The position numbers and the translations under genes were made by a program. From a virus: a stretch of 64,000 nucleotides of DNA. The notes under the pieces are model-generated. The model had not been told where the DNA came from. It did no database searches and saw nothing but the letters and a program-made list of their open reading frames with translations. This document shows, piece by piece, positions 34,761 through 64,000 of this stretch (positions are counted from its first letter, which is position 1; every line of letters begins with the position of its first letter). The DNA lies in IMG/VR virus record IMGVR_UViG_3300005613_000050, positions 4,927 to 68,926 of that record. One strand, 5' to 3'.

Positions 34761-35720
34761 ATGAGTACAGGTGAAGTTCGTTTTGTTCCGACCGCTACCA
34801 TTCGTGAGAACCCCGCAGCCCTTCGTAATGTGGATGTTGAATCTGAAAAGTTTGAGCAACTTAAAGATTCGGTCGCCCGTGAAGGCATTTTGAACCCTCC
34901 TCTCGGTGTCGATGCGGTTGATCCTGAAACGGGTGAACAGTATGTTGGTCTGGTTGATGGTTTGCAACGTACCACAGCGGCGAAAATGGTAGGACTCAAA
35001 GAGATTCCTATGCTTATCAAGGATTTTGATGAACAGCAGATTCTTACTGCTCAGATCATTACGAATATTCAGCGCATTGAGACGAAGCCTGCCGAATATG
35101 CAAAAAGTTTGCAGCGTCTTCTCGCCCTGAACCCGACCAAGACTCTTACTGAATTTGCTCAAGAGTTGTCGGTAAGTTTGGGATGGTTGCAGGGTCGTTT
35201 GAAGTTGACGAATCTGGCTGAAAGTATTCAGGCTCTTGTCAATGACGGTAGCATTACCGTGACCAATGCTATTCAGCTTGGTAAAATGCCCGAAGATGAA
35301 CAGATGAATTGGCTCGAAGCCGCGCAGACTGAGAGTCCTTCTGAGTTCGTTCCGAAGATTACTGCCCGTATCAAAGAGATTCAAAAGGCTAATCGCGAAG
35401 GTCGTGAAGCCAAGACTCTTACGTTTGAGGATGTGGTCAAGCCTGTTCGTCGTAAGCTCGACGAAATTGTGTCTGAGTTAGAAACTCAAACTGTCGGCGC
35501 TTCGCTCTGTAACAAGTTGTCTCTTTCGACAGCGGAAGAAGGATTCAAGCTTGGTCTTGAATGGGCAATGTCGATGGACCCCGATACGCTTGAGGTCAAA
35601 CGGGCTGAATGGGAACAGAAAAAAGCTGAGAAGGAGGAACGTAAGGCGAAGCGTAAGGCTGAACGCGAAGAGCGTAAGGCTGAACTCGCCGCGGCTAAAG
35701 CCGAAGAAGCTGGAGCATAA
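34761..35720 (+). CDS. parB: ParB/Spo0J-family protein 1
   Basis: LKDSVAREGILNP, LVDGLQRTTA, NIQR, HTH (TLTEFAQELSVSLGWL); charged C-terminal coil; AAGGAG RBS. Confidence 0.85.
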   Translation: MSTGEVRFVPTATIRENPAALRNVDVESEKFEQLKDSVAREGILNPPLGVDAVDPETGEQYVGLVDGLQRTTAAKMVGLKEIPMLIKDFDEQQILTAQIITNIQRIETKPAEYAKSLQRLLALNPTKTLTEFAQELSVSLGWLQGRLKLTNLAESIQALVNDGSITVTNAIQLGKMPEDEQMNWLEAAQTESPSEFVPKITARIKEIQKANREGREAKTLTFEDVVKPVRRKLDEIVSELETQTVGASLCNKLSLSTAEEGFKLGLEWAMSMDPDTLEVKRAEWEQKKAEKEERKAKRKAEREERKAELAAAKAEEAGA

Positions 35721-35746
35721 GTTAATAACTCATAAAAGGATAAGAC

Positions 35747-36394
35747 ATGGCAGAAAATGAAGTAGCACTAATTAGTGGTTTAACACCTGCAATCAGTGAG
35801 AAAGAAGTCCAAGAAGAGATTAAGAGTGGTGATTGGCTTTCTCGTATTCAGATCATTGACCCGAAATCATCTTTCGCTATGGAAGGTAAAGTCGGTCAAG
35901 GTAATTTTGCTCTTGTCCACAGTAAGGATGAAGCTGATGATCTGACAAATGAAATTGATTGCATCATTATGGACGTTCGATGGAAAGCTCTTGACATTTC
36001 TAACAGTGAAGAGATCATTAATGTCTATGATAAAGAAGCCGATGAATTCAAACGGATTCAAAGTGAATCTGAGATTAAGGACTCTGGTTGTATGTGGGGT
36101 ATGGAGTTCTTGATTTGGATTGCTTCTGTTGGCAAATATGCAACTTATTTTTGTTCAAGTAAGACTGCTCGGCGTGAAAGCAAAAATATCCATCGCCTTA
36201 TTGGGTATCCCGCGACACTTCGTACAGAACTTATTAAGACTAAGAAGTATTCTTGGTTCGGACCGAAAGTAGTATCTTGTACTACTCCTTTTGATGTTCC
36301 TCCAAAAGAGGAACTTGTAGCAGAAGTGGAAAAATTCCGTAAATCATCTGTCAGCGATGAGGTGGCAGGAGATACAGAGGAACGGGAACGATAG
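35747..36394 (+). CDS. Hypothetical replication protein, possible ssDNA-binding protein
   Basis: Beta-rich, aromatic KYSWF segment, acidic tail, optimised codons. Confidence 0.4.
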   Translation: MAENEVALISGLTPAISEKEVQEEIKSGDWLSRIQIIDPKSSFAMEGKVGQGNFALVHSKDEADDLTNEIDCIIMDVRWKALDISNSEEIINVYDKEADEFKRIQSESEIKDSGCMWGMEFLIWIASVGKYATYFCSSKTARRESKNIHRLIGYPATLRTELIKTKKYSWFGPKVVSCTTPFDVPPKEELVAEVEKFRKSSVSDEVAGDTEERER

Positions 36395-36403
36395 GCACAA
36401 AAC

Positions 36404-36438
36404 GGGGCGGTGAGTTAGTAACTTACCACCCCATTTTC
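36404..36438 (+). terminator. Intrinsic terminator built around the dispersed palindrome
   Basis: GGGGCGGTGAGTTA-G-TAACTTACCACCCC-ATTTTC. Confidence 0.7.
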
Positions 36439-36452
36439 TAATAAGGTGAAAA

Positions 36453-36944
36453 ATGGATATAGTCTGTTTGGCAAAAACTAAAATAAACTGGACAGACTAC
36501 ATAGCCTTATGTAAGATGAAAACAGGCTCTGCGCCTACAAGACAGTTAGATAAATCAAACATAAAATTAATAGAGGATCTCGCTTTAATATCTTCTTTAA
36601 GTGAATTAGCAGGTAAGAATTATACACCTGTTAATGCCGTTCAAAAGAGCGAGATATTTCTTGATTCTATATTCTTAGCATTTTTGGTCTTTGATTTTGA
36701 TACTAACATTTGTGGAACTTTAAATTGTTTTAAGTTACTAAATCAAACAATACTGTTATCTGGTACTTTAAAACAATGGAAAGACACAATAGTATTTAAT
36801 CTTACACCTGAACAAGATAAAGATCAGCGCGAACTATTTGGACGTATACTTGTCTTCTTAGAGTCTAATGGGTATAAACTTATTTTTAATAAGTACAGTA
36901 AAAATACATTAAAAGATGGGACATTTACATTGGAGAGCAAATGA
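36453..36944 (+). CDS. Hypothetical protein, possible degenerate ThyX fold
   Basis: LSGTLKQWK resembles ThyX MTANFREWR; no RHR motif. Confidence 0.35.
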   Translation: MDIVCLAKTKINWTDYIALCKMKTGSAPTRQLDKSNIKLIEDLALISSLSELAGKNYTPVNAVQKSEIFLDSIFLAFLVFDFDTNICGTLNCFKLLNQTILLSGTLKQWKDTIVFNLTPEQDKDQRELFGRILVFLESNGYKLIFNKYSKNTLKDGTFTLESK

Positions 36945-38962
36945 GTAAAGAACTAACTAAATTTAGAGTAGGACGGCGTTTAGTTAAAGGTTACTTGGAT
37001 TACCAAGATAACCGTGTCTTTATTTATACACCATATAATAAAGCACTACTTGCTGAGATTAAAGCGTTCCACGATGCTAGGTGGCACGGCTTTGAAGACC
37101 CTCCTATTAAGGCTTGGTCTATACCTCTCACAGAACGTAATAAGTTCCAACTTGAGTACCTTACTGGTGGTAACCCATACATTAAATATGACCATTATAT
37201 TAAAGAAGCAAAAACACATGAAATTATTTATCCTGAATATAATCATCAAACTGAGTTAGTAAATCAAGCACTCTCAACTAACTATTGTATTTGGGCTGCG
37301 GAGATGGGAACAGGAAAAACATTATCTGCTTTGATCTTAATGATTGAATCTGGTATTAAAGATTGGTGGTGGTTCGGACCGAAATCTGCCCTATACTCCG
37401 TCAAACTTGATGTTCTTAAGTGGAAAAGATGGGCAGAAGAACATAATGTCCCTAAAGATAAGTACCCTGTTATGCCGGTCTTCAATACTTATAATGCTTT
37501 AACAAAAATAATGAAGAACTGGGAAGATGGAGATAAAGCCCCTCAAGGTGTTATTTTTGATGAATCTTCAAGACTCAAAACACCAACAGCACAACGTTCT
37601 AAAGCTGCTCTCGCTCTTGTAGATGGTATCCGAGAAGACTGGGGCGATGAAGGTTATGCCATACAAATGACTGGTACGCCCTCACCTAAAGCACCTACAG
37701 ACTGGTGGTCACAATGTGAGATTGCTTGTCCTGGGTTCCTTAAAGAAGGGAATATACATAAATTTAAAAATAGGCTTGCTATTGTTGAGCAGCGTGAAAA
37801 CACAATTATTGGTGGGACTTATCCTCATTTAATTGCTTGGCGTAAAGGTGGAGATATTTGTAATGTATGTGGTCTGCCTGAATCTGCTCATACTTTAGAT
37901 GAGTCTACTGTTGCTGATTATCATCCATTTGAAAAAGCGGATAATGAGGTAGCTAAGCTCTATAGACGTATGCAGGGATTGGTAGAGGTTCGTTTTAAAA
38001 AGGACTGTACTGATCTACCTGATAAGATTTATCGTGTTATTGAATGTAAGCCTTCGGTACAACTACAACAATATGCCCGTACAATCTTACAGACTGCTCC
38101 GCGTGTTGTTACAGGTCTTATGATGTTGCGAGAATTAAGTGATGGTTTCCTTTATCGTGATGAACAAGATGGTACAAGTGTTTGTACTGTTTGTAATGGT
38201 AGAGGTAAACGTCCTCAAGAAGTCTTAAAAGGGGGTTATGAACTTCTTGATACTGGTAACATACTTGAGTTAGAAACTCAAAAAGAATATACAACAGCAG
38301 ATAATACTACTAACTTCTGGGAAACAGTTGAGGATGCTCTTTGTGATGGCTGTGGTGGTAGTGGTAAAGTACCAAAGTATAAGAGAGAAACTAAAACGAT
38401 CCACTCACCTAAAGAAGATGTTCTTAATGATTTATTAGATGAGTTTGAAGAAGCAGGTCGAGTAGTTATTTATGCTGGTTTCCAAGGCTCTCTTGATAAG
38501 GTTGAAGCTATCTGTAAAAATAAAGGTTGGATAACTTTAAGAGCCGATGGTAAAGGGTGGAAAACAAGTACTGGTTCAGTTGAAGATATCCTTCAAGCAA
38601 TGGATCAATCCCACCCAGACCGTGAAAAATATGTTGAACTTTATGACAAAATAGCCTTTATTGGTCAGCCCGGCGCAGCAGGTATGGGGCTTAACTTAAC
38701 AGCATCACCTGTCATTATTTATTACTCTAATGATTTTAATGCTGAGAACCGTATACAAAGTGAAGACCGCGTACACCGTTCTGGTATGGATAAGAATCGC
38801 GCACCAACAATTATTGACATTATTAATTTGGAGTCTGATAAAAAGATTCTTGAGAATCTACAAAATAAACGTGAACTTCAAGAAATGTCAATGGGGCTAT
38901 TTAAAACTATTTTAGATGAAGAAAAAGAAAGACTTACTTATGGAGATAGTATTTCCACTTAA
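36941..38962 (+). CDS. SNF2-family helicase with Zn-finger insertion
   Basis: EMGTGKT, DESS, MTGTP, GMGLNLTA, QSEDRVHRSG; CTVCNGRG and CDGCGGSG. Confidence 0.92.
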   Translation: MSKELTKFRVGRRLVKGYLDYQDNRVFIYTPYNKALLAEIKAFHDARWHGFEDPPIKAWSIPLTERNKFQLEYLTGGNPYIKYDHYIKEAKTHEIIYPEYNHQTELVNQALSTNYCIWAAEMGTGKTLSALILMIESGIKDWWWFGPKSALYSVKLDVLKWKRWAEEHNVPKDKYPVMPVFNTYNALTKIMKNWEDGDKAPQGVIFDESSRLKTPTAQRSKAALALVDGIREDWGDEGYAIQMTGTPSPKAPTDWWSQCEIACPGFLKEGNIHKFKNRLAIVEQRENTIIGGTYPHLIAWRKGGDICNVCGLPESAHTLDESTVADYHPFEKADNEVAKLYRRMQGLVEVRFKKDCTDLPDKIYRVIECKPSVQLQQYARTILQTAPRVVTGLMMLRELSDGFLYRDEQDGTSVCTVCNGRGKRPQEVLKGGYELLDTGNILELETQKEYTTADNTTNFWETVEDALCDGCGGSGKVPKYKRETKTIHSPKEDVLNDLLDEFEEAGRVVIYAGFQGSLDKVEAICKNKGWITLRADGKGWKTSTGSVEDILQAMDQSHPDREKYVELYDKIAFIGQPGAAGMGLNLTASPVIIYYSNDFNAENRIQSEDRVHRSGMDKNRAPTIIDIINLESDKKILENLQNKRELQEMSMGLFKTILDEEKERLTYGDSIST

Positions 38963-39728
38963 TAATAACAAGTATTATAATACTCATTATAGGTATGTAT
39001 TAAGTATTTTTAATGCCTTCCCTGATACGAACATAGTTTTTGAGCCAGTAGAATACTTCATTGTTGGGGTAAATGGTAAAAGATGCTTATTTGATTACAG
39101 TGATTATTTTGATATTGCAGGATATAATCCTAGAAACTTTGATTATGTTTTTAAGTTCCATAAACACTATGATGTAATGTATCCTGATAATGTTCTACCT
39201 TTCCCACCAATAAGCTTTTATAACTGGGATAAATATTTGTATAGTAGCATACAATATGCCCCAAATAAAGCAGGCATTTCTATGCGCCAGAAGAGCTATG
39301 GTAATGCTAGAGAACGCCGAAACATTGTTAGAGATATGTTGGTTAAAGAATTCGGTTCAGAGGTTAGAACAAGCATTTTAGAGCAAGACCTATATTTCTT
39401 AGAGGTTGAAGATATTTTCTTAGGGGTGTTTGTTCCGGGCGCTCAGGAAAATATGTTAGATCGTGGTCAGTTTCAATATATGGCTTATGGTGTTCCAACA
39501 ATAAGCCCTATGATACCTGAGTTACTAACTTATGATATTAGGTTCCAAGATGTAGAAGACTATATTGCTTGTAGAAATGATTACAGTGATTTAATCGACA
39601 TTATTATCGAAGCGAAAAAACAACCAGAGTTTATGCAGCAAATGGGGAGTAATGCTATGGTAAAATTTTTAGATACATCAACACCTATTAATCTTTATAG
39701 GTATTTTAAGAAAATATTTGGAGAATAA
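38940..39728 (+). CDS. Glycosyltransferase (GT-B-like)
   Basis: VFVPG..LDRGQFQYMAYG, DYIAC..DYSDL..MGSNA. Confidence 0.65.
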   Translation: MEIVFPLNNNKYYNTHYRYVLSIFNAFPDTNIVFEPVEYFIVGVNGKRCLFDYSDYFDIAGYNPRNFDYVFKFHKHYDVMYPDNVLPFPPISFYNWDKYLYSSIQYAPNKAGISMRQKSYGNARERRNIVRDMLVKEFGSEVRTSILEQDLYFLEVEDIFLGVFVPGAQENMLDRGQFQYMAYGVPTISPMIPELLTYDIRFQDVEDYIACRNDYSDLIDIIIEAKKQPEFMQQMGSNAMVKFLDTSTPINLYRYFKKIFGE

Positions 39729-39729
39729 A

Positions 39730-40569
39730 ATGAAAAAGATTGAAGTTATTAACTTAAAAGATATTTTGGCTGACGAAGCATTTAACTGTCGTGGCCGTAT
39801 TATGGGTACAGATGTTATTGACCTATCTAAAGATATTGAAGAGAATGGTCTTGATAGCCCTGTTACCATACAGACTTGGGATAAAGACGGCTATAAATAC
39901 CGTCTAGTTGCAGGGTTCCGGCGGTTCATGGCTCATCGCGTCCTTAAGAAAGAAAATATTGAATGTATTGTTCGTGAGTTTACAGATGAAAAAGAAGCAC
40001 GACTCATGAATATGCGTGAAAATATTATACGCAAAGAGTTGAATATCTTGCAAGAAGCTAAATCTATTAATCGTCTTTTAGCCATGGGTATGGGTATTAA
40101 AGCTATTGCTAAAGAGTTCTCACGTTCAGTAACTTGGGCACAAGTTCGTAAGGATTTGCTTGATCTACCAGAAGAGATTCAAAGTGAAGCAGCAGCAGGG
40201 CTATTAAATCAAAAACAAATTAAACAGCTTTGTAAGTTGCCAACTAAAGATATGCAATATGCAGCTACAAGAAAAATTAAAGACGCTAAATTCCGTGGTG
40301 ATGATATGCCTCGAATAACACCTAAAGTAAAAGAAAGTTCTCATGTTAAACGTCTACGGAAAAAGGTTGAGATCTTTTATATGCAAATGCACATCCAGAA
40401 AGCAATTAGTAATAACATTGGTACACGTTGTTTAGCTTGGGCAGCAGGGGAGATTAGTGATGCAGAGATTTTCAATGAAGTTGAAAAAATAGCGCAAGAT
40501 AAAGGTATATCCTATATTAAGCCAACTCATAGTGTTGCTACTCTTGTAGACCATGACCCAAGGGGGTAA
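39730..40569 (+). CDS. parB: ParB/Spo0J-family protein 2
   Basis: FNCR, DIEENGLDSPV, YRLVAGFRRFMA, NMRENIIRKELN, HTH (IAKEFSRSVTW). Confidence 0.92.
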   Translation: MKKIEVINLKDILADEAFNCRGRIMGTDVIDLSKDIEENGLDSPVTIQTWDKDGYKYRLVAGFRRFMAHRVLKKENIECIVREFTDEKEARLMNMRENIIRKELNILQEAKSINRLLAMGMGIKAIAKEFSRSVTWAQVRKDLLDLPEEIQSEAAAGLLNQKQIKQLCKLPTKDMQYAATRKIKDAKFRGDDMPRITPKVKESSHVKRLRKKVEIFYMQMHIQKAISNNIGTRCLAWAAGEISDAEIFNEVEKIAQDKGISYIKPTHSVATLVDHDPRG

Positions 40570-40572
40570 GCT

Positions 40573-40764
40573 ATGAAAATTGAAGAGTTATCAAATAAAG
40601 AACTATATGAAATATATTCTTACTACTTCATGGAACGGCTACCAAAAGGAGCAAAAATATCAAAAATGGCTCACGGTACATCTAACCATGAAGTGACATG
40701 TATTTATACAAAAGATAATAAACAATACTTTACAAGCGAAATTATACCGGAGAGGTTACGATGA
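40573..40764 (+). CDS. Hypothetical protein
   Basis: Tiles operon, ATGA overlap with polymerase. Confidence 0.55.
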   Translation: MKIEELSNKELYEIYSYYFMERLPKGAKISKMAHGTSNHEVTCIYTKDNKQYFTSEIIPERLR

Positions 40765-42977
40765 TTTATTATGATACAGAGACTTGTGGCTTTAAAGGTC
40801 CGATGGTTTTGCTTCAATATGCTGTAAATGAAGGTCCGATACAATTAGTAAACATTTGGAAACAACCAGTTGAAGAGACTTTAGAATTAATTGAGTGTAT
40901 GTTGCAGGATACTAATTGTGCTTTCAATTTAGTTTTTGACCATTTCCAACTCTGTAAAATTTATGGTATGTTTGAGCTTTTACCTAATCATACAAAATGC
41001 CCTCAAGATTATTTAGATGAGTTAACAACTCAAGAGTGGCATGATATTGAGAAGAGAGCAAGAGACGTAAAATGCCTTAAACCTAAAAATTGTTTTGATG
41101 TTATGCTACACGCACGTAAAGGTCCTTATCAAAGTACAATGGATCGTAAAGACATTTGGGTGAAACGTGTACCAACGGCTATAGCTCAACAGTTAGCTGA
41201 TACACTTGAAGAGCTTATACCTTTAAAGAAGATTTATTTTTCAGGTTTTAAAGACAAAAACAGAAAACATTGGCAAGTCGAAGATATTATTGACGCTGAA
41301 GGTGAGGTCGTAACAAACCTAAAAAATATTGTCTTGAGGTTTCGAGCGTCTTCTGCCCTTAAGAATCTAGCTGTTGATGCTCTTGGTCTTGATGAGAATG
41401 ATGTTCTTCGTTTCGGGACTATTGGTGTTGATAAGCACTATTATCCTAATGAGGATAAATATGTCCCATATGGTAGTGATTGGGTTGGGAAGATTATTCA
41501 CCATATTAACTATTGGGCTTTTAATCCATTGGCTAAGCAATACGCAGGAGACGATGTAAAATATGTCAGAGAACTTTATCATTATTTCGGTGATCCTCCT
41601 GTTGGTGACGCTGACTCTGAGCTTGCCGCGATGGTGGCAGCAGTAAGATGGAAAGGTTTTAGTGTTGATTGCGGTAAGCTATCTGAGTTAGCAACTCAAG
41701 CCCGAGCTAAAGCAGAAAATATCCCTACTGCACCTTCTACTGCTAAGAAGTATTTAATACAGCATATGAATGAATTTGAACGAAGCATTATCCAAGAGTC
41801 CACAAAAAAGGTTGTTCTTCAAGAAGTAGCAAAATGGAAAGATCACCCCGCTGCTAAAGCCGCTAGAGATATTCTGCAAGCAAGACAAGCATTAAAAGAG
41901 GTTGAACTTTATGATAAACTTATTGCTGCGGAGCGGTTCCATGCCGGCTTTAGAATCATTGGTACAAAAAGCACACGTATGTCGGGTAGTGATGGTCTTA
42001 ATCCTCAAGGTATTAAGAAAGACGGTAAAGTCAGAAGTTGTTTTGGTCTTGCTCCAGATGGTATGATACTATGTGGTGGTGATTTTGACGCATTTGAAGT
42101 GAGTCTAGCGGAAGCTATTTACAATGACGCTGAACTCCGTAAAGTTCTTTTAAGTGGTAAGAAGCTCCATGCTCTGTTTGCCATGTCTATGTACCCAGGT
42201 TCTACTTATGAAGAGATTATGGAGGAAAATAAGCGCGATGAATTTGATCCACAATATGTAAATGGTACACGTTATAAAGATGGTAAGCAAGGTGTTTTTG
42301 GTAAGATTTATGGTGGCGATTATAACACAATGGTACAGAAACTTGGACTTTCAGAGGAGGTAGCCAAACAAGCTGAAGCTAATTTTGAGCGTCAATTTCC
42401 GGGTATTGCCAAAGCTAGGATGCGTATACAAGATATGTTTTGTTGTATGACACAGCCTAATGGCATTGGTTCACAAGTCATTTGGAAAGAACCTAAAGAT
42501 TATATTGAAAGCATTTTTGGGTTCCGTAGATATTTTACCCTAGAGAATAAGATTTGTAAAGCTCTTTATGATTTAGCACAGAATCCACCTAAAGAATGGA
42601 GAAACATTCGTGGTAAGATTATTCGTAGAGAGCGAACACAAACAATCTCAGGTGCAACAATGAGTGGTTTATATGCGGCAGCTTTCAATATTCAATCACA
42701 AAATATGAGAGCAGCTTCAAACCATGAGATACAAAGTCCGGGCGCAACAATAACTAAAGAAGTACAAAATGCCATTTGGAGCCACCAACCTATTGGTATA
42801 CATGATTTCAAAGTGATGCCCTTAAATATTCATGATGAAATCATGACAGCAGTTGCTCCAGAGTTAGTAAATCAAGTTAAAGAGACGGTCGAAGCTAAAG
42901 TAGAAAGTTACAGGGATCGTGTCCCACTTATCGCTCTTGAATGGAAGGCAGGATTAAAATCATGGGGAGAGAAATAA
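40761..42977 (+). CDS. polA: Family A DNA polymerase
   Basis: Exo I YDTET; STRMSG, motif A DFDAFE, motif B KQGVFGKIYG, motif C IHDE. Confidence 0.93.
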   Translation: MIYYDTETCGFKGPMVLLQYAVNEGPIQLVNIWKQPVEETLELIECMLQDTNCAFNLVFDHFQLCKIYGMFELLPNHTKCPQDYLDELTTQEWHDIEKRARDVKCLKPKNCFDVMLHARKGPYQSTMDRKDIWVKRVPTAIAQQLADTLEELIPLKKIYFSGFKDKNRKHWQVEDIIDAEGEVVTNLKNIVLRFRASSALKNLAVDALGLDENDVLRFGTIGVDKHYYPNEDKYVPYGSDWVGKIIHHINYWAFNPLAKQYAGDDVKYVRELYHYFGDPPVGDADSELAAMVAAVRWKGFSVDCGKLSELATQARAKAENIPTAPSTAKKYLIQHMNEFERSIIQESTKKVVLQEVAKWKDHPAAKAARDILQARQALKEVELYDKLIAAERFHAGFRIIGTKSTRMSGSDGLNPQGIKKDGKVRSCFGLAPDGMILCGGDFDAFEVSLAEAIYNDAELRKVLLSGKKLHALFAMSMYPGSTYEEIMEENKRDEFDPQYVNGTRYKDGKQGVFGKIYGGDYNTMVQKLGLSEEVAKQAEANFERQFPGIAKARMRIQDMFCCMTQPNGIGSQVIWKEPKDYIESIFGFRRYFTLENKICKALYDLAQNPPKEWRNIRGKIIRRERTQTISGATMSGLYAAAFNIQSQNMRAASNHEIQSPGATITKEVQNAIWSHQPIGIHDFKVMPLNIHDEIMTAVAPELVNQVKETVEAKVESYRDRVPLIALEWKAGLKSWGEK

Positions 42978-55985: not shown

Positions 55986-56163
55986 ACTTAAAGATGGTAC
56001 TGTATTGAAAAGTGAATCTACTTTTAAGAGTCTTAAAGACGTTGTTGATGAGTTAGTAAGTCAATATGGTGTTGGTCAAATTATTAACGCTATTGATGAT
56101 TGCGATGAAGTTCTTGATTCTCTTGAAGATGAAGAAATTAAACTGTATATGGAGGGGATGTAA
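55975..56163 (+). CDS. Small acidic hypothetical protein
   Basis: AAGGAG RBS. Confidence 0.5.
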   Translation: MLVELKDGTVLKSESTFKSLKDVVDELVSQYGVGQIINAIDDCDEVLDSLEDEEIKLYMEGM

Positions 56164-56501
56164 TGCTTAAGATTCTTATGGCAGTTATTATTGTTGTTCC
56201 TACAGTAACGGCAGAAACAGTTAGTAAAGAATTTAAAGAAAATGAGATTACAGCAGAAGAAAAATATAAGAAACAAGAATACATTATTACTGGTGTTGTT
56301 AAGTCTGTATCTAAAGGTACTGAGGAAGGTACAGCCGAAGTTTGTACGGAAAGTTTGATCTATATTGTTGTGCCACTTAAAGCTAATAAAAAAGTTTTGG
56401 TGGCTTTGAAAGCCGGAGACAAAATATCCTGTAAATGTAGGTTTAGTAGTAATCTCATTTCGCCTGAATTTAAAGGCAAGGAGATCAAAAATGTCAAATA
56501 A
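56163..56501 (+). CDS. OB-fold (tRNA_anti-like) exported protein
   Basis: KEFKENEITAEEKYK..ITGVVKSV..LKAGDKI. Confidence 0.65.
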   Translation: MLKILMAVIIVVPTVTAETVSKEFKENEITAEEKYKKQEYIITGVVKSVSKGTEEGTAEVCTESLIYIVVPLKANKKVLVALKAGDKISCKCRFSSNLISPEFKGKEIKNVK

Positions 56502-56922
56502 AGTTATTAAAAATATAGTAGATATGGATGCTTGGGAAGAGTATCAAAATAAAAATACTGATCCTTACGGTGCTGCTTGTGTTACAGTTGCTCGGAATGT
56601 TATGTTGTATTTAGATGAGAATCCAACAGAATTTGAACTTGGCTATTCTCCTAATATGAAAACTACTCACGGTATTATTTGTCACTGTGATACTGTAGGT
56701 GGAATAACAGGATTTATGGCTGGCTATGTTACAACTATGGTTTCAAGATGCTATAAGGATGGATGGAAATTTCTTCTTGCTGATACTCTTGTTGGTTGTA
56801 ATATGACTGATGAACATATTAAAAAGGCTATTAAGAGTTCTATGGCGGTGGTTTTGAAGCAAATGCAAGACACTATGCTTGAGTATGTTAATTCTCTTAA
56901 TGTGGGAGATCAAAAATGTTGA
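56491..56922 (+). CDS. Hypothetical protein
   Basis: NTDPYG..GITGFMAG; AAGGAG RBS. Confidence 0.6.
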   Translation: MSNKVIKNIVDMDAWEEYQNKNTDPYGAACVTVARNVMLYLDENPTEFELGYSPNMKTTHGIICHCDTVGGITGFMAGYVTTMVSRCYKDGWKFLLADTLVGCNMTDEHIKKAIKSSMAVVLKQMQDTMLEYVNSLNVGDQKC

Positions 56923-57131
56923 ATGATGAAGCCTTGAAAAAATTGTGTGCAGCAACAGGTAAAGAAGAAATGGAGATGCTTGAAGAGGCGACTTTTGATT
57001 CTGTAGCTGATGCTATCTGCGTTGAGTGTGGTTATACTACAGTTATGGAACCTGACCAAGATCGGGGTTGGTGTGAAGAGTGTGAGAAGAACACAGTTAA
57101 AAGTTGTCTGATACTTGCGGGGATGATTTAA
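56916..57131 (+). CDS. Small Zn-ribbon protein
   Basis: ICVECG..EPDQ..GWCEEC. Confidence 0.65.
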   Translation: MLNDEALKKLCAATGKEEMEMLEEATFDSVADAICVECGYTTVMEPDQDRGWCEECEKNTVKSCLILAGMI

Positions 57132-57988
57132 TGAAAAAAATGGGTTTTCATGGGATTTCGTCGGATAGGGTTTATGCCAAGGGCATAGTATATTGTGAGC
57201 ATATAGTAACAGAAAAATGTAATTTTCATTGCTCATATTGCAATAGGCTCTGTGCCGGAGATGACCTATCTTTTAACGGAATAATTAGTTTATTTGATAA
57301 GATTGCAGGATGTAAGTTTTACCATATCACAGGAGGCGAGCCTACAACCAGAAGCGATATTGTTGATATTGTAAAAGAGGCTAATAGCCGTTTCGATATG
57401 GTTCGTATGTCTACAAATGGTTCAGCACCAAAAAAGGTTTACCAAGATATTGTTGATGCTGGGTGTAAGTCTTTTGCTATATCGCTTGATCGAGGTCAAG
57501 AAATGTTTAATCATGTTGTGGATATAATTAAGTTTCTTTCTGATTATGATGTACAGATCGGGACTGTTGAAGCCGACTCGGACATGATAAAATTTATTTA
57601 TAGCCTTGGTGTTAGCGATATAAAAATAGGAACGGCGAGCCAGAACAAAACGTCTATTGTTGATGTTGATGTTTTGCCAACAACTCCGATAATGAAATAT
57701 CGTATTGACAGGTTTAGGCGTGGCTTAGGTATGCGAGGAACTCTCATTTCAGATCGTTGTTATTTATGTGAAACAGACATAACAATAAAAGGGAACAAGC
57801 ATTATCCGTGCGCCGTTTATATGCGAGAGGGCGGTAACGCTATAGGTGATATGTCAGATGATTTTATGCAAGAGCGAAAAGATTGGTCTATTAGGCACAA
57901 CACAAAGAACGATACGATATGCTCTAAATACTGTATGGACTTCAAGTGTGACTTTAACGGGGAGTGTATGAATGAAACAATCTGTTGA
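57131..57988 (+). CDS. Radical SAM enzyme (MoaA-like core, Cys-rich C-terminus)
   Basis: CNFHCSYC, TGGEPT, STNG, ISLD. Confidence 0.88.
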   Translation: MKKMGFHGISSDRVYAKGIVYCEHIVTEKCNFHCSYCNRLCAGDDLSFNGIISLFDKIAGCKFYHITGGEPTTRSDIVDIVKEANSRFDMVRMSTNGSAPKKVYQDIVDAGCKSFAISLDRGQEMFNHVVDIIKFLSDYDVQIGTVEADSDMIKFIYSLGVSDIKIGTASQNKTSIVDVDVLPTTPIMKYRIDRFRRGLGMRGTLISDRCYLCETDITIKGNKHYPCAVYMREGGNAIGDMSDDFMQERKDWSIRHNTKNDTICSKYCMDFKCDFNGECMNETIC

Positions 57989-58526
57989 GTTAATAACTTA
58001 TACGCCTGATCCTGAGAGTGTTATCGAGCGTTGTGGTAGAATCTGTTATCTTAGTGAGTGTAAAGATGCAGGTGCTTTTGTTCGTATGATCTTGAAGCGT
58101 GGGCATGAATCGGTGCTAGAACACGCATCAGCTACGTTCCAGATTATTACAGATCGCGGCATATCTCATGAGATTGTTCGTCATAGGTTGGCGAGTTATT
58201 CTCAAGAGTCAACACGTTTCTGTAAATATAAGGAACTTAATTTCATAGAACCTGCAGAACCAAATTTTGAATGGCTTTATGCCTGTAAGGCTGCTGAGAA
58301 AGCTTATAAGAGCATGATAGCTGATGGTGTTGCGCCACAATTTGCTAGAGACGTATTGCCTATGAGTCTAGCGACTAAGGTGGTTATGACGGCAAATTTT
58401 AGAGAGTGGCGTCATTTTATTAAGTTACGTAGTGCTAAAGATGCTCACCCTAAGATTCAAGAAGTTAGTAACTTAATTTTGGAAGAGTTAAAGAGTATTG
58501 CACCTAATTGTTTTGGAGGATTATAA
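57972..58526 (+). CDS. thyX: Flavin-dependent thymidylate synthase
   Basis: GHESVLEH, HEIVRHRLASYSQESTR, NFREWRHFIKLR..AHP. Confidence 0.95.
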   Translation: MKQSVELITYTPDPESVIERCGRICYLSECKDAGAFVRMILKRGHESVLEHASATFQIITDRGISHEIVRHRLASYSQESTRFCKYKELNFIEPAEPNFEWLYACKAAEKAYKSMIADGVAPQFARDVLPMSLATKVVMTANFREWRHFIKLRSAKDAHPKIQEVSNLILEELKSIAPNCFGGL

Positions 58527-58825
58527 TGCGTAATTTGTTTAAAAACCTTCGAGAAGGTAAAATACTAAAACTTGTTAAGAAATATGACCACTGGGTGATT
58601 AGGCGGTTTATGTCGGGTATGTTAAGTGATACTTTTATAATTGATAAATATTTTAATGTCCCTAAGAGTGTTGATACTATTTATATTAGTATTGTTAAGT
58701 ACCACCCACAAGGCGTTAAAATAGATGCTGAATTTCTAGAACAATGTAAAAGATGGAATCAATGTCGTCGGTATTTTGATGAATGGCGGAATGGTCGCTC
58801 TGGTTATCTTGTTGTACGTTATTAA
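58526..58825 (+). CDS. Hypothetical protein
   Basis: TAATG coupling, GGAGG RBS. Confidence 0.55.
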   Translation: MRNLFKNLREGKILKLVKKYDHWVIRRFMSGMLSDTFIIDKYFNVPKSVDTIYISIVKYHPQGVKIDAEFLEQCKRWNQCRRYFDEWRNGRSGYLVVRY

Positions 58826-58838
58826 TAGGAGAAAAATA

Positions 58839-59771
58839 ATGCGTGAAGTACGTTACTTATCACCAACCTCTGTTAAGAAGTATCTTACAGACCGTGAACA
58901 ATTCTTTATTGATTACATGGCTGATGAGCGTGAGGATCGTATGCCTCAGACTCAAGCCATGTCAGTTGGTTCAGCTTTTGATGCTTATGTTAAAGCCTAT
59001 TTATATAAGGAGCTTGCTTGCGGGAGTGATGCTGCGTTTGAGTTAGCAACTCTTTTAGAAACACAAGTAGAACCACATAATCTTGATTTCGCCCGTGAAG
59101 CAGGACGTAAATGTTTTGATGCTTATAAGGGCTTTGGTTGTATAGCTGATCTCATGCTTATGCTGACAGCCGGTACTAATCCACGCTTTGAGTTTACGCT
59201 TGAAGGTTCTATTGATCCTGTTACTATGAAGCTTGGAGACTCTGGGGTGACGCTCTTAGGCAAGCCGGATATGCACTTTATTAATAAAGACGGGTGTGGT
59301 GTCATACTGGACTGGAAAGTTAATGGCTATTGTTCTAAGCGTAAGCCCTCTCCAACACGTGGTTACTTGAATATGGTTCCTCAAGGCAAGTCGCATAAGG
59401 ATGCTATACCTGGATATATTAATGGCGTATTGTGTAATATTGCTTGCTACTTGGATACAGGCTCTGAGGACTGGGGGCGCCAATTGGCTATATATGGTTG
59501 GCTAATGGGTGAGGCTGTTGGTAGTGAGTTTATTACGGGTATCGACCAGTTGGTTTGTTGTAATGGTACGATACATGGTGTTGCTCAGCATCGCTCACGT
59601 ATTAATCCTGCTTATCAGCACGCTCTATTTGATAATGTCTGTGACATATGGAAACGAACAAGAGAAGGCGGTCACTTCTTTGATGATATGTCCTATACTG
59701 ATTCAATCGAAAGGTGTAAGGTTCTTAATGGCAGCTTCGGAGAGCCTATGGACTTTAGGCGGGAACTATAA
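58839..59771 (+). CDS. PD-(D/E)XK exonuclease (RecB-like)
   Basis: YLSPTS, GSAFD, GKPD, ILDWK, QLAIY. Confidence 0.8.
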   Translation: MREVRYLSPTSVKKYLTDREQFFIDYMADEREDRMPQTQAMSVGSAFDAYVKAYLYKELACGSDAAFELATLLETQVEPHNLDFAREAGRKCFDAYKGFGCIADLMLMLTAGTNPRFEFTLEGSIDPVTMKLGDSGVTLLGKPDMHFINKDGCGVILDWKVNGYCSKRKPSPTRGYLNMVPQGKSHKDAIPGYINGVLCNIACYLDTGSEDWGRQLAIYGWLMGEAVGSEFITGIDQLVCCNGTIHGVAQHRSRINPAYQHALFDNVCDIWKRTREGGHFFDDMSYTDSIERCKVLNGSFGEPMDFRREL

Positions 59772-59793
59772 GTTACTAACTTAGGAGAATAAA

Positions 59794-60054
59794 ATGCACG
59801 ACAAAGACTTTAACATGCTTGAACACCGTGCGAAACGATGCACAACACATCACTATGGATGTGATTGCCGAGAATACGAACGGATAAAGGCTTTAAGAAA
59901 AGTAGAAGAGCAAGCAGAAGAGATCGAGCGGTTGCTTAAGGGGATACACCTTCTCGGCGCGATGTGCGGCAATCCGCATTCCGGTGATGAAGCGTGTCGG
60001 TTGATTTTGAAGAAGTGCAAGGAACTTAAAGCCCAAGCGGGCTGGGAGGCGTGA
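59794..60054 (+). CDS. Hypothetical protein
   Basis: CTTHHYGCDCRE motif; AGGAG RBS. Confidence 0.6.
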   Translation: MHDKDFNMLEHRAKRCTTHHYGCDCREYERIKALRKVEEQAEEIERLLKGIHLLGAMCGNPHSGDEACRLILKKCKELKAQAGWEA

Positions 60055-60452
60055 TGAGCGAACAATCGGTAGTGGGTACAACTGCATTAGCACATGGAGA
60101 CACTCTTAATTTTCTTCACCGTTCCAGAGATGATGTTAAAGTACATGAAGACACAGAGAGTGCCCAGCAAGCTATCAACGAAGCAACGGCGGAGAAGGAT
60201 AAAGAGATTGAACAGTTGAAGGCAAGACTTATAAAAGCCCATGTATGTCCGGACTGTTTGGCCGAGACAGGAGGTGAAGTGATGAATAATTTTATTATGC
60301 CCGCGGCATATGGAGTCTTAACAGGTTTATCTATAAACATATATGCTAAGCTATATAAATATGACTGTGATTTAAAAGTTTATGCACTATTTTGTCTTTG
60401 TGTCTCTCTTGCGTTATATGGTAATTGCATGATGCAGATTGGTAAGAGATGA
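60051..60452 (+). CDS. Hypothetical protein (mosaic, C-terminal TM segment)
   Basis: ATAEKDKEIEQLKA module; internal GGAGG RBS before MNNF. Confidence 0.55.
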   Translation: MMSEQSVVGTTALAHGDTLNFLHRSRDDVKVHEDTESAQQAINEATAEKDKEIEQLKARLIKAHVCPDCLAETGGEVMNNFIMPAAYGVLTGLSINIYAKLYKYDCDLKVYALFCLCVSLALYGNCMMQIGKR

Positions 60453-60742
60453 TTGGTTGGGTTAGGCGCGGTAAACGGGTTAAACACTTTAAAATAGTTG
60501 GCGACTATATTACTGTGCCTAAAGGTTCTTCGCCTACTGCGGTGCTTAGTTGGTTAGGCTGTAGGGTCGAGGTAGGAAAAGGTAGGTTATGTTGGTGCAA
60601 GATTCTTAAGCCTAAAGGTGAGAAGTTACTAACTCGTTGTAAATATTATAAAATAAAAGGAGGTGTAAATCATCTTAGAATCTTGAAGTATTTGAACAAA
60701 GGAAAAAATGTTGGTTACATAAAAACGTGTAAGCCCGTTTAA
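60449..60742 (+). CDS. Basic hypothetical protein
   Basis: ATGA overlap; last gene before terminator. Confidence 0.45.
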   Translation: MIGWVRRGKRVKHFKIVGDYITVPKGSSPTAVLSWLGCRVEVGKGRLCWCKILKPKGEKLLTRCKYYKIKGGVNHLRILKYLNKGKNVGYIKTCKPV

Positions 60743-60750
60743 ACGAAATA

Positions 60751-60787
60751 AAAGGATACCCCTACCTTGGGGTATCCTTTCCTTTTA
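60751..60787 (+). terminator. Intrinsic terminator ending the right arm
   Basis: AAAGGATACCCC-TACCTT-GGGGTATCCTTT-CCTTTT. Confidence 0.85.
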
Positions 60788-61246
60788 ATGTTGCTCTACG
60801 GGCATTGTAGGTGCCTTAAACGGCAAAATAAGAGCAGGGTTCTGGGCGTTTTTACGCTCGATTTTGATGGAAAATAGCAGTATCCTGTAAGTCCTTATAT
60901 ACCAACAGTCTAAGTGGCTTTTTTTCAAAAATCTTATAACTCCTTGTCAGGCAAAGGGTTGAAAAAACTACTCGAAAGTGGAAAATCTATTGTTATATAT
61001 ATAAATTTTTATTTTTTCCTCTATATTAAAGGATATTTAGAAAAAAGATAGACTTTCCAAGTCCTTGTCAGAACTAGGGTTATGAGACTACGACAAACGT
61101 TTGAAATAGAACTCATTGCTATATAAGGACTTACAAGAAAAAAAGATAGTTATTACATAAATGTATCAGAAATTTCGGCGAAACGCTATAAATAGGCATT
61201 TGTAAAATTAGGCATTTGTAAGATGTATATATAAGAGTTTATAACT

Positions 61247-61405
61247 TAAGAATATTAGGTCTATGGCTCTTAGAATATTAGGTCTATGGTTCTTAGAATA
61301 TTAGGTTCTTAGAATATTAGAATATTAGGTTCTTAGAATATTAGGTTCTTAGAATATTAGAATATTAGAATATTAGGTTCTATAGCTCTAAGGGTATTAG
61401 GTTCT
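61247..61405. repeat. Degenerate TTAGAATA/TTAGGTTC 8-mer array
   Basis: Direct reading. Confidence 0.9.
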
Positions 61406-61619
61406 TGTAGCTCTATTCTGTTGAGTTAATAACTTGTTGAAAAAATAAATTTTTATCAGATTTTTCGCCGAAAAAGGCGTTTTGCTAGTCGATTGGCACT
61501 TTGTAAGAACCGTAGAACCCTATTTTATAGGCAAAAGTTCACTATATTTAGGCTCAAGAACTCATATTTAGGCTGTAAGAACCGTAGAATATAGAACTTG
61601 AGTTACTAAATTCTATGTG

Positions 61620-61760
61620 CTATCAGGCTATCAGGCTGTTAGGCTGTTGAGTTATCAGGCTGTTAGGCTGTTAGGCTGTTAGGCTGTTAAGTTATTAAGC
61701 TGTCAGGCTGTCAGTCTCAGGCTGTCAGGCTGTCAGGCTGTGCTGTCAGGCTGTCAGGTT
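61620..61760. repeat. (C/T)AGGCTGT 8-mer array
   Basis: Direct reading. Confidence 0.9.
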
Positions 61761-61801
61761 GTTGAGTTACTAAATTCTACGGTTCTGACAGCCTAACAAC
61801 C

Positions 61802-61866
61802 TATAAATATATAAATATATAAATATATAAATATATAAATATATAAATATATAAATATATAACTAT
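61802..61866. repeat. ATATATAA 8-mer array (about 7 copies)
   Basis: Direct reading. Confidence 0.92.
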
Positions 61867-61998
61867 AAAACACAGCCCACCCACCCACCGACCCGCTTCT
61901 CCCTTACGTTCAAGGGAACCAAAAAGTTAGTAACTTAAATTAAATTTACGTTTGAGTTAATAACTCAAAATATGGTGGATCGTGTCAAAATGACACTG

Positions 61999-62098
61999 TC
62001 AAAATGACCTGTAGGATAATCCAACATATCAAAATGACCTGTAGGATAATCCAACATATCAAAATGACCTGTAGGATAATCCAACATATCAAAATGAC
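61999..62098. repeat. 30-bp tandem repeat x3 (TCAAAATGACCTGTAGGATAATCCAACATA)
   Basis: Direct reading. Confidence 0.92.
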
Positions 62099-62122
62099 TC
62101 TTTCAGCGAGTTACTAAATCAA

Positions 62123-62570
62123 CATAGCCTATCAGTCATAAAGTATAGTCTTATAGTTTATAAAGTATACTGATAGCCTATCGACCTATAAGTATAGCCT
62201 TATAGACCGATAGAGTATACTGATAGCCTATCGACCTATAAGTATAGTCTTATAGTTTATAAAGTATACTGATAGCCTATCGACCTATAAGTATAGCCTT
62301 ATAGACCGATAGAGTATACTGATAGCCTATCGACCTATAAGTATAGCCTTATAGACCGATAGAGTATACTGATAGCCTATCGACCTATAAGTATAGTCTT
62401 ATAGACCGATAGAGTATACTGATAGCCTATCGACCTATAAGTATAGCCTTATAGACCGATAGAGTATACTGATAGCCTATCAGTCATAAAGTATAGCTTT
62501 ATAGACCGATAGAGTATACTGATAGCCTATCAGTCATAAAGTATAGCTTTATAGACCGATAGAGTATACT
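62123..62570. repeat. 49/50-bp tandem repeat x9
   Basis: GATAGCCTATCGACCTATAAGTATAGCCTTATAGACCGATAGAGTATACT and variants. Confidence 0.95.
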
Positions 62571-62722
62571 GATACACTATGCACCATATAAAAAGAGCTT
62601 GCTCTTTTGCCTTGTTTTGTAGTCAATTTTTTGATACACTATGCACCCTATAAAAAGAGCTTGCTCTTTTGCCTTGTTTTGTAGTCAATTTTTTTTGACC
62701 AGATAAAAAGAGCTTGCTCTCT
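62570..62722. repeat. About 62-bp direct repeat x2 plus partial third
   Basis: TGATACACTATGCACC..AAAAAGAGCTTGCTCTTTTGCCTTGTTTTGTAGTCAATTTTT. Confidence 0.85.
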
Positions 62723-63270
62723 TAAGTTAGAAAATCGACGAAAAAAGTTGATTATGCCATGTATGCCGTTTAAATCGCCATAGAGCGTGTTTAATGTTTT
62801 TCCGGTACTATCACCTTCGGCGGTGGAGTACATACTTTTATGTGGTATGAAAAAACTTTTTTGTGTGGAATGGTACTTGCTATTATATACCTTTTATATA
62901 TGGAGTTCCTTGCTTTATCTTGTAAGCCTATGGCATATAGAGACTTATAAAAATCTACATTATGGTAGGTGGTTAAATCTTTACATATCAAGGACTTATG
63001 AAATAATCGACTTTCCTACTATATGGTAGATTCTGGAAAATATCTTGTAAAGTGTTGATATGTAAGGACTTGCAAGAATACCTAAAAACATATCCTACCA
63101 TAATGTAGTAAATCTGCTTTCTTTGTATATCTTGTAAGTCGTTGACATATAAGAAGTTATATTTTTTTTCGTGTCTGGCACAAGTCTTGCTTTATATAAA
63201 GTGTTGTTTGATTGAGAGTTTATGGCTTACTCAAGACGGTTTTTAGAGTTGTTACTCAAAAGGGAGAAAA

Positions 63271-63585
63271 ATGGATACTGTTAAACTGATGCACTATGCG
63301 ACCGAGTATGTACACGAACACGAGCGTAATCAGGTACTAGAGCGCGCCCTCATTGATGAAATTATGCGTAGCGGTGAGTTGGCGTATATGATTCACAATG
63401 GCACGATCCGCCCAATTGACCAACTATTGCATACCGGAGGAACCATCTACGCACAATGTGGAGATGATGTTGTTATGATCTGTTTTTGTGCCGATGGGTG
63501 CATCCGCGCATTGACCGACACCCCCGCCGCCGATATTGCAACAATCAAAGAGATGAACAGGAAGCATATTGAAGACTACAGATAA
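63271..63585 (+). CDS. Hypothetical protein
   Basis: GGGAG RBS; first gene after the non-coding region. Confidence 0.6.
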   Translation: MDTVKLMHYATEYVHEHERNQVLERALIDEIMRSGELAYMIHNGTIRPIDQLLHTGGTIYAQCGDDVVMICFCADGCIRALTDTPAADIATIKEMNRKHIEDYR

Positions 63586-63635
63586 TTTTTTCCGGCAATG
63601 TTGCCGGAGTTGTTAACTTAAAAAAGGAGAACAAA

Positions 63636-64000
63636 ATGTACGCAAACGAAAAGGCAGTAATGAAAAGTTTTGAAACGTTGACAGTATGGGCGAAAAACCC
63701 GCGCACTAAGAGTGACGAAGTACAAACGGAAAGCCTTGGCTTATCTCTCAAACAAGGTTATGACGCGCGGTACCCTATGGTAGTTTTTCCGGCGGGTGAT
63801 GACGGCACCCACGCAGTCATTCAAGGCAACAAGCGCCTTACTTGTCTTCAGAGTATGACAGAGCAAGAGCGTGCAGTCTGTCTTGTCAACAATGAAATTC
63901 CCTGCATTATTTTTGACGGGAGCGAAGAAGACGCCATGTTATTGGCACTCAATGACAAAGGCACTGGCACCGATGAAAAAGAACTGTACGACATCGAAAA
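63636..64000 (+). CDS. ParB-like protein 3 (partial, runs off window)
   Basis: AAGGAG RBS; MYANEKAV..KNPR..LSLKQG..PMVV..VIQGNKRLTCL..IPCII. Confidence 0.7.
   Translation, partial: MYANEKAVMKSFETLTVWAKNPRTKSDEVQTESLGLSLKQGYDARYPMVVFPAGDDGTHAVIQGNKRLTCLQSMTEQERAVCLVNNEIPCIIFDGSEEDAMLLALNDKGTGTDEKELYDIE

Follow-up and report, generated by a model that had tools for sequence, protein, structure and literature searches.

Paralogous ParB proteins without a detected ParA, and a dispersed palindrome as their candidate target, in an uncultivated siphovirus-type phage

ParB cytidine triphosphatase (CTPase) clamps are known in chromosome and plasmid segregation, in nucleoid occlusion (Noc) and in plasmid gene silencing (KorB), and the phage genome described here raises the question of what such proteins read, and to what end, when several of them are encoded without a ParA. 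The DNA analysed, referred to throughout as the window, is a stretch of 64,000 bp (bases 4927-68926 of the 68,926-bp IMG/VR record IMGVR_UViG_3300005613_000050) encoding three ParB-family proteins, ParB1, ParB2 and ParB3, and carrying a palindrome that is scattered over the genome (Table 1). A preliminary description of the sequence had proposed a ParB-CTPase system acting on dozens of sites rather than on one centromere. The ParB proteins without ParA and the genome-wide distribution of the sites both stand, whereas ParB3 looks separate from the system. Our prediction is that a dimer of one of the ParB paralogues encoded by the phage binds and loads at the palindromes and would coat the genome without the help of ParA, a sequence-based reading that we consider evenly poised.

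With one mismatch allowed, the palindrome in the form TGAGTTACTAACTCA gave 34 rows in the window and none in 100 shuffled sequences. Genome-wide, with the centre base left free, there are 3 perfect copies (window 6011-6025, 32140-32154 and 61953-61967), 40 with one mismatch and 30 with two, against about 0.8 in shuffles, amounting to a density of about one per kb with copies in all 14 five-kb bins. The half-site letters (n = 146) are T (117), G (108) or A (38), A (146), G (130) or T, T (146), T (145) and A (130), the T at position 4 being the commonest deviation there (14/146). Most sites (56 of 73) lie within open reading frames (ORFs), and 43 of those 56 use the single stop-free frame, in which the palindrome reads E/K-L-x-T. 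In either of the remaining frames the palindrome would introduce a stop codon (TGA, or TAA/TAG), and sites that do fall in those frames show the changes expected. Since stop codons explain the frame bias, selection on the palindrome acts on DNA: it is selected as DNA and fitted into coding sequence where the frame permits. Non-ORF DNA makes up 7.8% of the genome yet holds 17 of the 73 sites, a 3-fold enrichment (p 3.5e-5), and the 850 bp between the primase and ParB1 genes contain motif-like copies at 33865, 34377, 34434, 34516 and 34682.

Related phages carry dispersed palindromes of their own with the same build, many at about one per kb; Table 1 shows six of these forms. A pattern scan of IMG/VR found at least 198 stretches encoding a ParB1 relative, and the best 80 of the 198 were fetched; stretches bearing ParB2 number 163. 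ParB1 belongs to a conserved module with the order primase, ParB1, gp215, SNF2 helicase, ParB2, PolA; in 82 loci the primase was found in 80, gp215 in 70, the helicase in 56, ParB2 in 47 and the polymerase in 40, counts that fall below 82 largely through short contigs. In two relatives with many sites (G001 and G002) these are mostly intragenic and in a stop-free frame, reading D-L-x-N. The GATTT-type relatives have a palindrome of the form TGATTTACTAAATCA, and a search for one palindrome common to all relatives, which might be a conserved ParB2 site, returned the TGATTT family only. Sites at orthologous positions differ in the manner of the two motifs: at primase column 168 this phage has TGATTTAGTAACTCA where L127, L128 and L135 have TGATTTAGTAAATCA, and polymerase columns 165 and 1117 follow the same pattern, GATTT in L128/L135 corresponding to GAGTT in this phage. 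Half-converted GATTT/GAGTT hybrid sites occur in it too, and these, together with the predominance of T among the deviations at position 4, suggest from sequence comparison that its lineage moved from GATTT to GAGTT. In the 32 loci with a clear motif, some of them near-duplicates, the 730 bp upstream of ParB1 hold 90 sites where 25.3 are expected (3.6-fold), and 31 of the 32 have at least one.

Because the symmetry is kept while the sequence changes across the clade, and no abundance in bacteria was seen, the reader of the palindrome is probably phage-encoded, dimeric and co-evolving with its sites. Among the matches listed, 120 bacterial stretches hold one exact copy each and show nothing of the abundance expected of a host sequence; the palindrome as a host-derived repeat is unsupported. 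Nor do other viral contigs show enrichment of the exact motif, 116 stretches having one exact copy each except for a single contig (L115). We give very little credence to the alternative that the palindrome is the target of DNA modification, nicking or a host factor, with its variation reflecting different hosts. Such a role would suit the ability of phage ParB-like proteins to activate DNA-modifying dioxygenases, as described in the accessible text of PMC13229309, and the related phages probably do infect different hosts; the motif is nonetheless abundant in none of the 120 bacterial stretches among the matches listed, the phage genome has no match to the Tet_JBP dioxygenases, no methyltransferase was found in the ORFs scanned with PHROG and Pfam (46 of 105 in a crude ORF call), and the strict two-fold symmetry, which outlasts the changes in sequence, indicates a dimeric binder.

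Among the candidates for this reader, a ParB paralogue ranks first. The preliminary description had listed three ParB-family paralogues with the motifs DGLQR (ParB1), AGFRR (ParB2) and GNKR (ParB3); the motifs were seen again, and ParB1 and ParB2 pass the Pfam ParB_N and HTH_ParB models while ParB3 joins the family at the level of the fold. ParB1 (ORF 34704-35720; the database form P0004, of 319 amino acids, begins at 34761) exceeds the gathering score of ParB_N (PF02195; E 4e-12, 46.5 bits, cut-off 26.3) and the cut-off of HTH_ParB (PF17762; E 1.7e-5, 25.3 bits, cut-off 22.6), matches ParB-like PHROG families, and was aligned by phmmer with solved Spo0J, ParB, Noc and KorB chains across its N domain and helix-turn-helix (HTH), which is followed by a Lys/Glu/Ala-rich C-terminal helix. 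The database holds 110 relatives, some 60 of them close and about 320 amino acids long, and the closest (P0005-P0008, from ENA and JGI) share 60-76% identity. Box II of ParB1 is DGLQR, reading GLQR at the GERR position with one Arg kept, and box III (the ENLQR position) is TNIQR with its Asn kept; by these motifs its nucleotide pocket looks degenerate.

ParB2 (ORF 39718-40569, ATG at 39730) passes both models as well (ParB_N E 1.9e-8, 34.7 bits, cut-off 26.3; HTH_ParB E 2.4e-7, 31.2 bits, cut-off 22.6), and phmmer aligned Noc, Spo0J, ParB and KorB chains over both domains. Its box II, AGFRR, reads GFRR at the GERR position and keeps both Arg, and box III is ENIIR in this phage, the family consensus being ENLQRKDLN. 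Foldseek searches with its AlphaFold2 (AF2) model (predicted local distance difference test (pLDDT) 91.6) gave Noc as best match (7nfu, E 7e-11), and also the KorB-KorA complex 8qa9 and Caulobacter ParB on parS (6t1f, target-normalised template modelling (TM) score 0.69); the conserved three-helix C-terminal domain of the model was covered by none of the solved structures. ParB1 and ParB2 both retain, as far as these alignments indicate, an intact ParB-type HTH.

The absence of a partition motor extends beyond the window. Across all 68,926 bp of the record, AAA_31, CbiA, Phage_integrase and Resolvase were each without a match at E ≤ 0.1, in searches for which positive controls matched in 13 or 14 of 14 genomes. 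This agrees with the earlier statement that neither ParA nor an integrase is visible, and a conventional parA beyond the window, which would have spoken against the proposed system, was not found within the record. Among 28 related records of 44-112 kb (7 of them rated at least 90% complete) AAA_31 was over the cut-off in none, with one sub-threshold match of 15.4 bits, and ParB_N was present in all 28, in at least two copies in 27. The motif by which ParB binds ParA, given as [LFI]G[KR]G[LFI] in the accessible text of PMC12704722, is absent from ParB1, ParB2 and ParB3 in a regular-expression search. With no ParA ATPase, no ParA-binding motif and sites that are not gathered in one centromere, the system is not ParABS partition. 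Since AAA_31 stayed below its cut-off and ParB_N was found in every one of the 28 long records, the gene content marks the ParA-less pair of ParB1 and ParB2 as a core feature of a large group of uncultivated phages. ParB_N is matched three or four times in each of five larger relatives (G007, G012, G013, G022 and G027; 94-112 kb), and the paralogue number is therefore variable within the clade.

Presence and absence cannot name the reader, because ParB1 and ParB2 always co-occur in the related loci. Our first choice, held with somewhat less than even confidence, is ParB2; ParB1 is a possible reader of lower probability, another protein or another kind of site is rather unlikely, and a reading by both paralogues is improbable. 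ParB2 would be the somewhat better candidate because it has both box-II arginines, the ENLQR box of its family and a recognition helix of the canonical G-K/R-S-R type. In our alignment, anchored on the LLxLP motif, the G-K-S-R-G-W common in ParB2 falls on G170-K171-S172-R173 of Caulobacter ParB, residues that contact parS according to the accessible text of PMC7383237, where positions 173, 179, 184 and 201 are given as determining specificity. A convergence test on one common locus set sought columns with a residue common to this phage and the independent GAG-type lineage (L170, L199) and absent elsewhere. Only 4 of 3119 columns in seven proteins qualified, namely R136 of ParB2, one exonuclease column and two helicase columns, and none of the 316 columns of ParB1. 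R136 aligns, on the same motif, with the DNA-contacting K171 of Caulobacter ParB, and an Arg appearing where T becomes G is chemically plausible.

Were ParB1 to read the palindrome instead, it would be an autoregulated silencer of the KorB type, bound to the promoter of its own gene and to some 70 other sites, and ParB2 would have a different target or bind DNA non-specifically. We treat this as a tentative possibility. The clustering of sites directly upstream of ParB1 in 31 of 32 relatives fits it, as does the persistence of that clustering where dispersed sites are lacking: most of the loci without a dispersed palindrome have one to three TGAT..ATCA-type palindromes directly upstream of ParB1, and two of them (L006 and L008) have tight palindrome clusters immediately upstream. 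The recognition helix of ParB1 is moreover the more variable between relatives of the two, and a ParB1 subclade with a W-I-[AG]-G-R helix goes with GATG motifs. Opposed to these are the lack of any convergent column in ParB1 for the GAG-type lineages, the identical ParB1 recognition helix of L150 and L199 with partly different motifs, the degenerate box II, and the lack of the canonical base-contacting arginines (residue roles as in the accessible text of PMC7383237).

A reader outside the ParB family is unlikely. On this alternative a phage protein that escaped recognition (gp215, gp163, gp270 or a small ORF) would bind the palindrome, and the ParBs would serve replication or packaging without genome-wide specific binding. 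Of these, gp215 adjoins ParB1 in 70 of 82 loci and has zero family matches in PHROG, Pfam and the ESM Atlas; the scans, moreover, covered 46 of the 105 ORFs, and the covariation evidence for the ParBs is weak. The recognised DNA-binding folds in those 46 ORFs are nevertheless limited to the ParBs and a sigma-factor-like protein, with no other HTH or DNA-binding family among them, palindromes of 13-16 bp are typical targets of ParB-family HTH dimers (PMC7383237, accessible text), and both ParB1 and ParB2 keep their ParB-type HTH intact.

Several observations count against our preference for a ParB reader, and for ParB2 among them. ParB1 retains one of the GERR arginines, as noted above, and is without equivalents of R173 and R204 in our alignment, and ParB2 is without the glutamate of the catalytic box (GFRR here; GHRR, GFRR or GYRR in the family). 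When ParB1 and ParB2 columns were scanned for mutual information with motif features, phylogeny dominated and the signal was concentrated in neither HTH, and the ParB2 recognition helix is nearly identical in GATTT- and GATG-motif phages. In a wider set of 73 ParB2-centred loci R136 is present in 7, two of which (L235 and L290) have TGAT-type palindromes and three no clear motif, so it is at most permissive. The co-occurrence of motif and ParB in relatives, which the preliminary description had named as a check, is seen in the many phages with palindromes of their own and fails in 33 of 82 loci, where both ParBs are present without a clear dispersed palindrome; the ParBs can therefore fulfil their core role without dispersed sites. 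Any regulator at work in the main divergent promoter region could also account for the site enrichment upstream of ParB1, and a DNA-binding protein may have gone unrecognised, the scan having covered 46 of 105 ORFs and many of those 46 being without a known family.

In the mechanism we favour, a dimer of one ParB paralogue, preferably ParB2, would bind and load at the palindromes, and ParB1 would be a co-factor or would read the cluster of sites at the promoter of its own gene. With loading sites spaced roughly every kilobase, ParB would come to cover the entire chromosome of the phage, much as Noc or KorB might and with no ParA involved, and the coat could tag this DNA so that its transcription is controlled globally or so that it is compacted or protected. 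The proteins, the lack of a ParA, the motif statistics and the co-variation across the clade are seen in the data, and we infer the binder, its nucleotide dependence, the spreading and the function. A further step, which we regard as doubtful, is that a lytic-type clade coats its chromosome by means of the ParA-less ParB pair, loaded at about one site per kb within coding sequence, and so labels it as self, the joint drift of protein specificity and some 70 sites giving rise to incompatible labels among relatives. Such a label might separate phage from host DNA, whether for shielding from nucleases and host defence, as a global transcription switch, or for selective condensation and packaging.

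By analogy the system would work most like Noc, an orphan ParB with scattered sites, or like KorB, with its palindromic operators, long-range silencing and sites at its own promoter. Noc of Bacillus, the protein that ParB2 most resembles in modelled structure, is likewise a ParB paralogue without a ParA partner and has many palindromic sites scattered over the replicon. Its sites number about 70 and are sparse on a 4-Mb chromosome, whereas here there is about one per kb on a 69-kb genome, mostly intragenic, and two to three paralogues in place of one. KorB of RK2 is a ParB-CTPase whose 13-bp palindrome is bound at a dozen places, from which it silences distant genes (PMC11790492, accessible text). 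Both ParB1 and ParB2 match KorB structures, and sites at the ParB gene's own promoter are common to the two systems; on RK2, however, a ParA (IncC) is present too and KorA is the partner of KorB, whereas here no ParA was found, no KorA-like partner was identified (no search was aimed at KorA), the density of sites is several-fold higher and most of them are intragenic.

The ParABS systems (P1 ParB/parS, F SopB/sopC) likewise use a protein with ParB_N and HTH domains from a family that binds palindromes, and differ in having what is missing here: a ParA, the ParA-binding motif and sites confined to one centromere. Cluster A mycobacteriophages carry stoperators, dozens of short sites over the genome, also inside operons, all recognised by a single phage protein, the immunity repressor. 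These asymmetric, oriented sites, whose binder is not a ParB, contrast with the palindromes of this phage, in whose genome no lysogeny genes were found. The ParB-fold activators of phage thymine dioxygenases also have a role other than segregation, and the accessible text of PMC13229309 describes them as having no obvious DNA-binding domain and pairing with a 5mYOX enzyme; here there is no Tet_JBP match, and ParB1 and ParB2 have a clear HTH. Plasmids, prophages and phages commonly encode orphan ParB-like proteins at a distance from parA, and these are without the ParA-binding motif (PMC12704722). Few of their targets are known, and the accessible part of that survey describes no two-ParB replication module and no genome-wide co-evolving site array.

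Our literature search, of partial coverage, found no ParA-less phage ParB pair with a genome-wide co-evolving palindrome array. The present genome supplies what may be the target of the ParBs of an entire phage clade, in the form of a genome-wide array inside coding sequence whose site density is, to our knowledge, the highest for the ParB family. It also provides a natural experiment in which a DNA-binding protein would co-evolve with tens of sites at once, the hybrid sites marking a change of specificity in progress from GATTT to GAGTT. If confirmed, it would represent a viral, ParA-independent use of the ParB fold, and a source of orthogonal ParB-site pairs potentially useful for DNA labelling.

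The role of ParB3 is probably separate from the ParB1/ParB2 system. Its ORF extends beyond the window, spanning the record's 123-bp terminal repeat. The first 121 amino acids had no Pfam match at E ≤ 0.1 and weak PHROG matches (1.3e-7 to 5.5e-4), and an exhaustive phmmer search with them found 11 proteins; the 9 ParB3 relatives scanned had no Pfam matches, a word-based search with the C-terminal 230 amino acids found no match, and a profile search against PDB sequences gave chance-level GldM matches only. An AF2 model of P0115, a relative of 48% identity, built on the family alignment (pLDDT 85.6), had 7 PDB matches at E ≤ 0.001 in Foldseek, all ParB or Noc chains with KorB just below, and every listed match to E 0.035 was ParB, Noc or KorB, each with more than 200 aligned columns. 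By hhalign ParB3 matched the ParB2 family, over the N domain and HTH, with a probability of 75% (E 2.5e-5), and the ParB1 family with 42%. On the phmmer family, the P0115 model, its Foldseek matches and the hhalign match to the ParB2 family, ParB3 is, as modelled, a third and very divergent ParB-fold paralogue; an ESM Atlas lead (0.93) places a ParB-type HTH in its C-terminal part.

Directly upstream of ParB3 lies the ORF-free repeat region, with at least 6 tandem arrays of periods 8, 16-24, 30, 50 and 62 bp. The 50-bp array has 9 units (62124-62574) and contains the palindrome GATAG-C-CTATC, present in 8 copies genome-wide; an array of the 8-mer GCTGTCAG reaches 18.6 copies and has motif half-sites on its flanks. 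The region further includes an AT-rich (TATAAATA)x8 tract and four degenerate copies of the dispersed motif, has a repeat unit of the form GATAGCCTATC, and looks like an origin, iteron or pac region. Downstream of ParB3 follow a 205-amino-acid ORF, the large terminase (TerL) and the portal. In the related genome G001 a ParB3 homologue of 31% identity occupies the corresponding place, beside a non-coding region and upstream of a 552-amino-acid ORF that we read as TerL from its position alone. ParB3 thus seems linked with packaging, or with a region resembling an origin or centromere, and not with the dispersed motif.

The same region is where a conventional system might be sought, the phage being then a plasmid prophage whose centromere is the repeat region by ParB3 and whose motor comes from the host or was missed. 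The 2.5 kb are iteron-like, and the 9 x 50-bp array beside ParB3, with a short palindrome in each unit, resembles the layout of F sopC; CheckV, in addition, puts completeness at 74% despite the terminal repeats of the record. We still find this highly improbable: the first 123 bp of the record equal its last 123 bp and close it into a unit of 68,803 bp, AAA_31 and CbiA had no match here and AAA_31 was over the cut-off in none of the 28 relatives, the 7 that are at least 90% complete included, the ParA-binding motif is missing, and about 70 intragenic sites would be left unexplained.

Table 1 Features of the window and dispersed palindromes of related phages
Feature	Position in window, or related locus	Strand	Description
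ParB1	34761..35720	+	ParB_N, HTH_ParB and charged helical tail; first gene of the rightward replication operon
ParB2	39730..40569	+	ParB_N, HTH_ParB and conserved three-helix C-terminal domain
ParB3, N-terminal 121 amino acids of a 311-amino-acid ORF	63636..64000	+	Very divergent ParB-fold protein with GNKR motif; head of packaging operon
Dispersed 15-bp palindrome TGAGTTAnTAACTCA (degenerate TRAGTTA-n-TAACTYA)	1..64000	.	73 copies at ≤2 mismatches in the 68.8-kb genome
Primase/helicase-like protein (DUF5906/VapE-like)	31134..33854	-	PHROG, Pfam; divergent from ParB1; conserved module
Primase-ParB1 divergent intergenic region	33855..34703	.	Five motif-like copies and four copies of the second palindromic element
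Rest of conserved module: gp215, gp163, SNF2-type helicase (36941-38962), gp270, ParB2, small ORF, family-A DNA polymerase (40761-42977)	35747..42977	+	PHROG, Pfam
Non-coding repeat region	60750..63270	.	2.5 kb, ORF-free, directly upstream of ParB3
Palindrome TGATTTAnTAAATCA	L127, L128, L135		
Palindrome GATTT-N3-AAATC	L156, L182, L197, L202-204		
Palindrome TGAGTT-N2-AACTCA	L170/L173, L199		
Palindrome GATAT-N3-ATATC	L145		
Palindrome GATG-N4-CATC	L158, L159/L161, L177		
Palindrome GATTA-N-TAATC	L183, L165		
Related genome, 84 kb, terminal repeats	G001		TGATTTAnTAAATCA: 42 perfect, 64 at ≤1 mismatch; shuffles 0
Related genome, 69 kb	G002		TGATTTAnTAAATCA: 37 perfect, 52 at ≤1 mismatch; shuffles 0
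Related genome, 60 kb	G016		65 at ≤2 mismatches; shuffles 1.8
Related genome, 48.5 kb	G028		66 at ≤2 mismatches; shuffles 5.0
Related genome, 48 kb	G011		79 GATG-N4-CATC; shuffles 0.8

The window represents, by its gene content, most of a 68.8-kb siphovirus-type phage genome with its own replication genes, and the layout is siphovirus-like. PHROG and Pfam matches identify a structural arm with large terminase, portal, scaffold, major head protein, a 1384-amino-acid tape measure and large tail proteins, and a rightward replication operon with the SNF2-type helicase, the family-A DNA polymerase, a sigma-factor-like protein, an ATP-dependent ligase and ThyX; searches on the record detected no lysogeny genes and no partition motor. 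The phage is remote from those in GenBank: megablast with 10 kb gave zero matches to GenBank phages, tblastn of the primase gave zero against 50,697 GenBank phage records, and ParB1, ParB2 and the polymerase had distant matches only, below 33% identity.

A second palindromic element, roughly CTTGTAAGTCCTTATATAYCAAVGACTT, occurs in non-coding regions only, with its copies in the primase-ParB1 intergenic region at 33990-34253 and several in the repeat region (60880-60910 and 62900-63160). It is conserved in the related genome G001 and also found in L207 (5380-5460 and 6555-6580), and a short form, GTAAGTCCTTAC, lies upstream of ParB1 in L143, L154 and L187; the element is probably promoter- or operator-related. 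In the unrelated viral contig L115, four AGTTAnTAACT cores, including two full 15-mers, sit operator-like in one intergenic region (6419-6730), and no ParB homologue was found within 10 kb of this cluster. The dispersed palindrome itself is sparse in one stretch of the window (45784-54598), where gaps of 6.2 kb and 2.6 kb at ≤2 mismatches compare with about 1 kb elsewhere, and which may hold recently acquired accessory genes.

Several smaller features accompany the rightward operon. The sigma-factor-like protein (45125-45817) matches PHROG 351 (E 1.3e-11), with a Sigma70_r4_2 match below the cut-off. Small nuclease-like ORFs follow the polymerase gene (43706-44572 and 56491-56922), with matches to VRR-NUC (22.7 bits, just under the cut-off of 23.8) and NYN (E 7e-9), and a weak sub-threshold match to the Thoeris inhibitor family Tad4 (E 0.0037) was noted among them. 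A transfer RNA for leucine (tRNA-Leu, anticodon TAA) lies in the middle of the operon (46256-46341), and two ORFs contain in-frame tandem repeats, one of 188 amino acids with a 21/63-bp period (47356-47551) and one of 150 amino acids with a 72-84-bp period (51057-51332).

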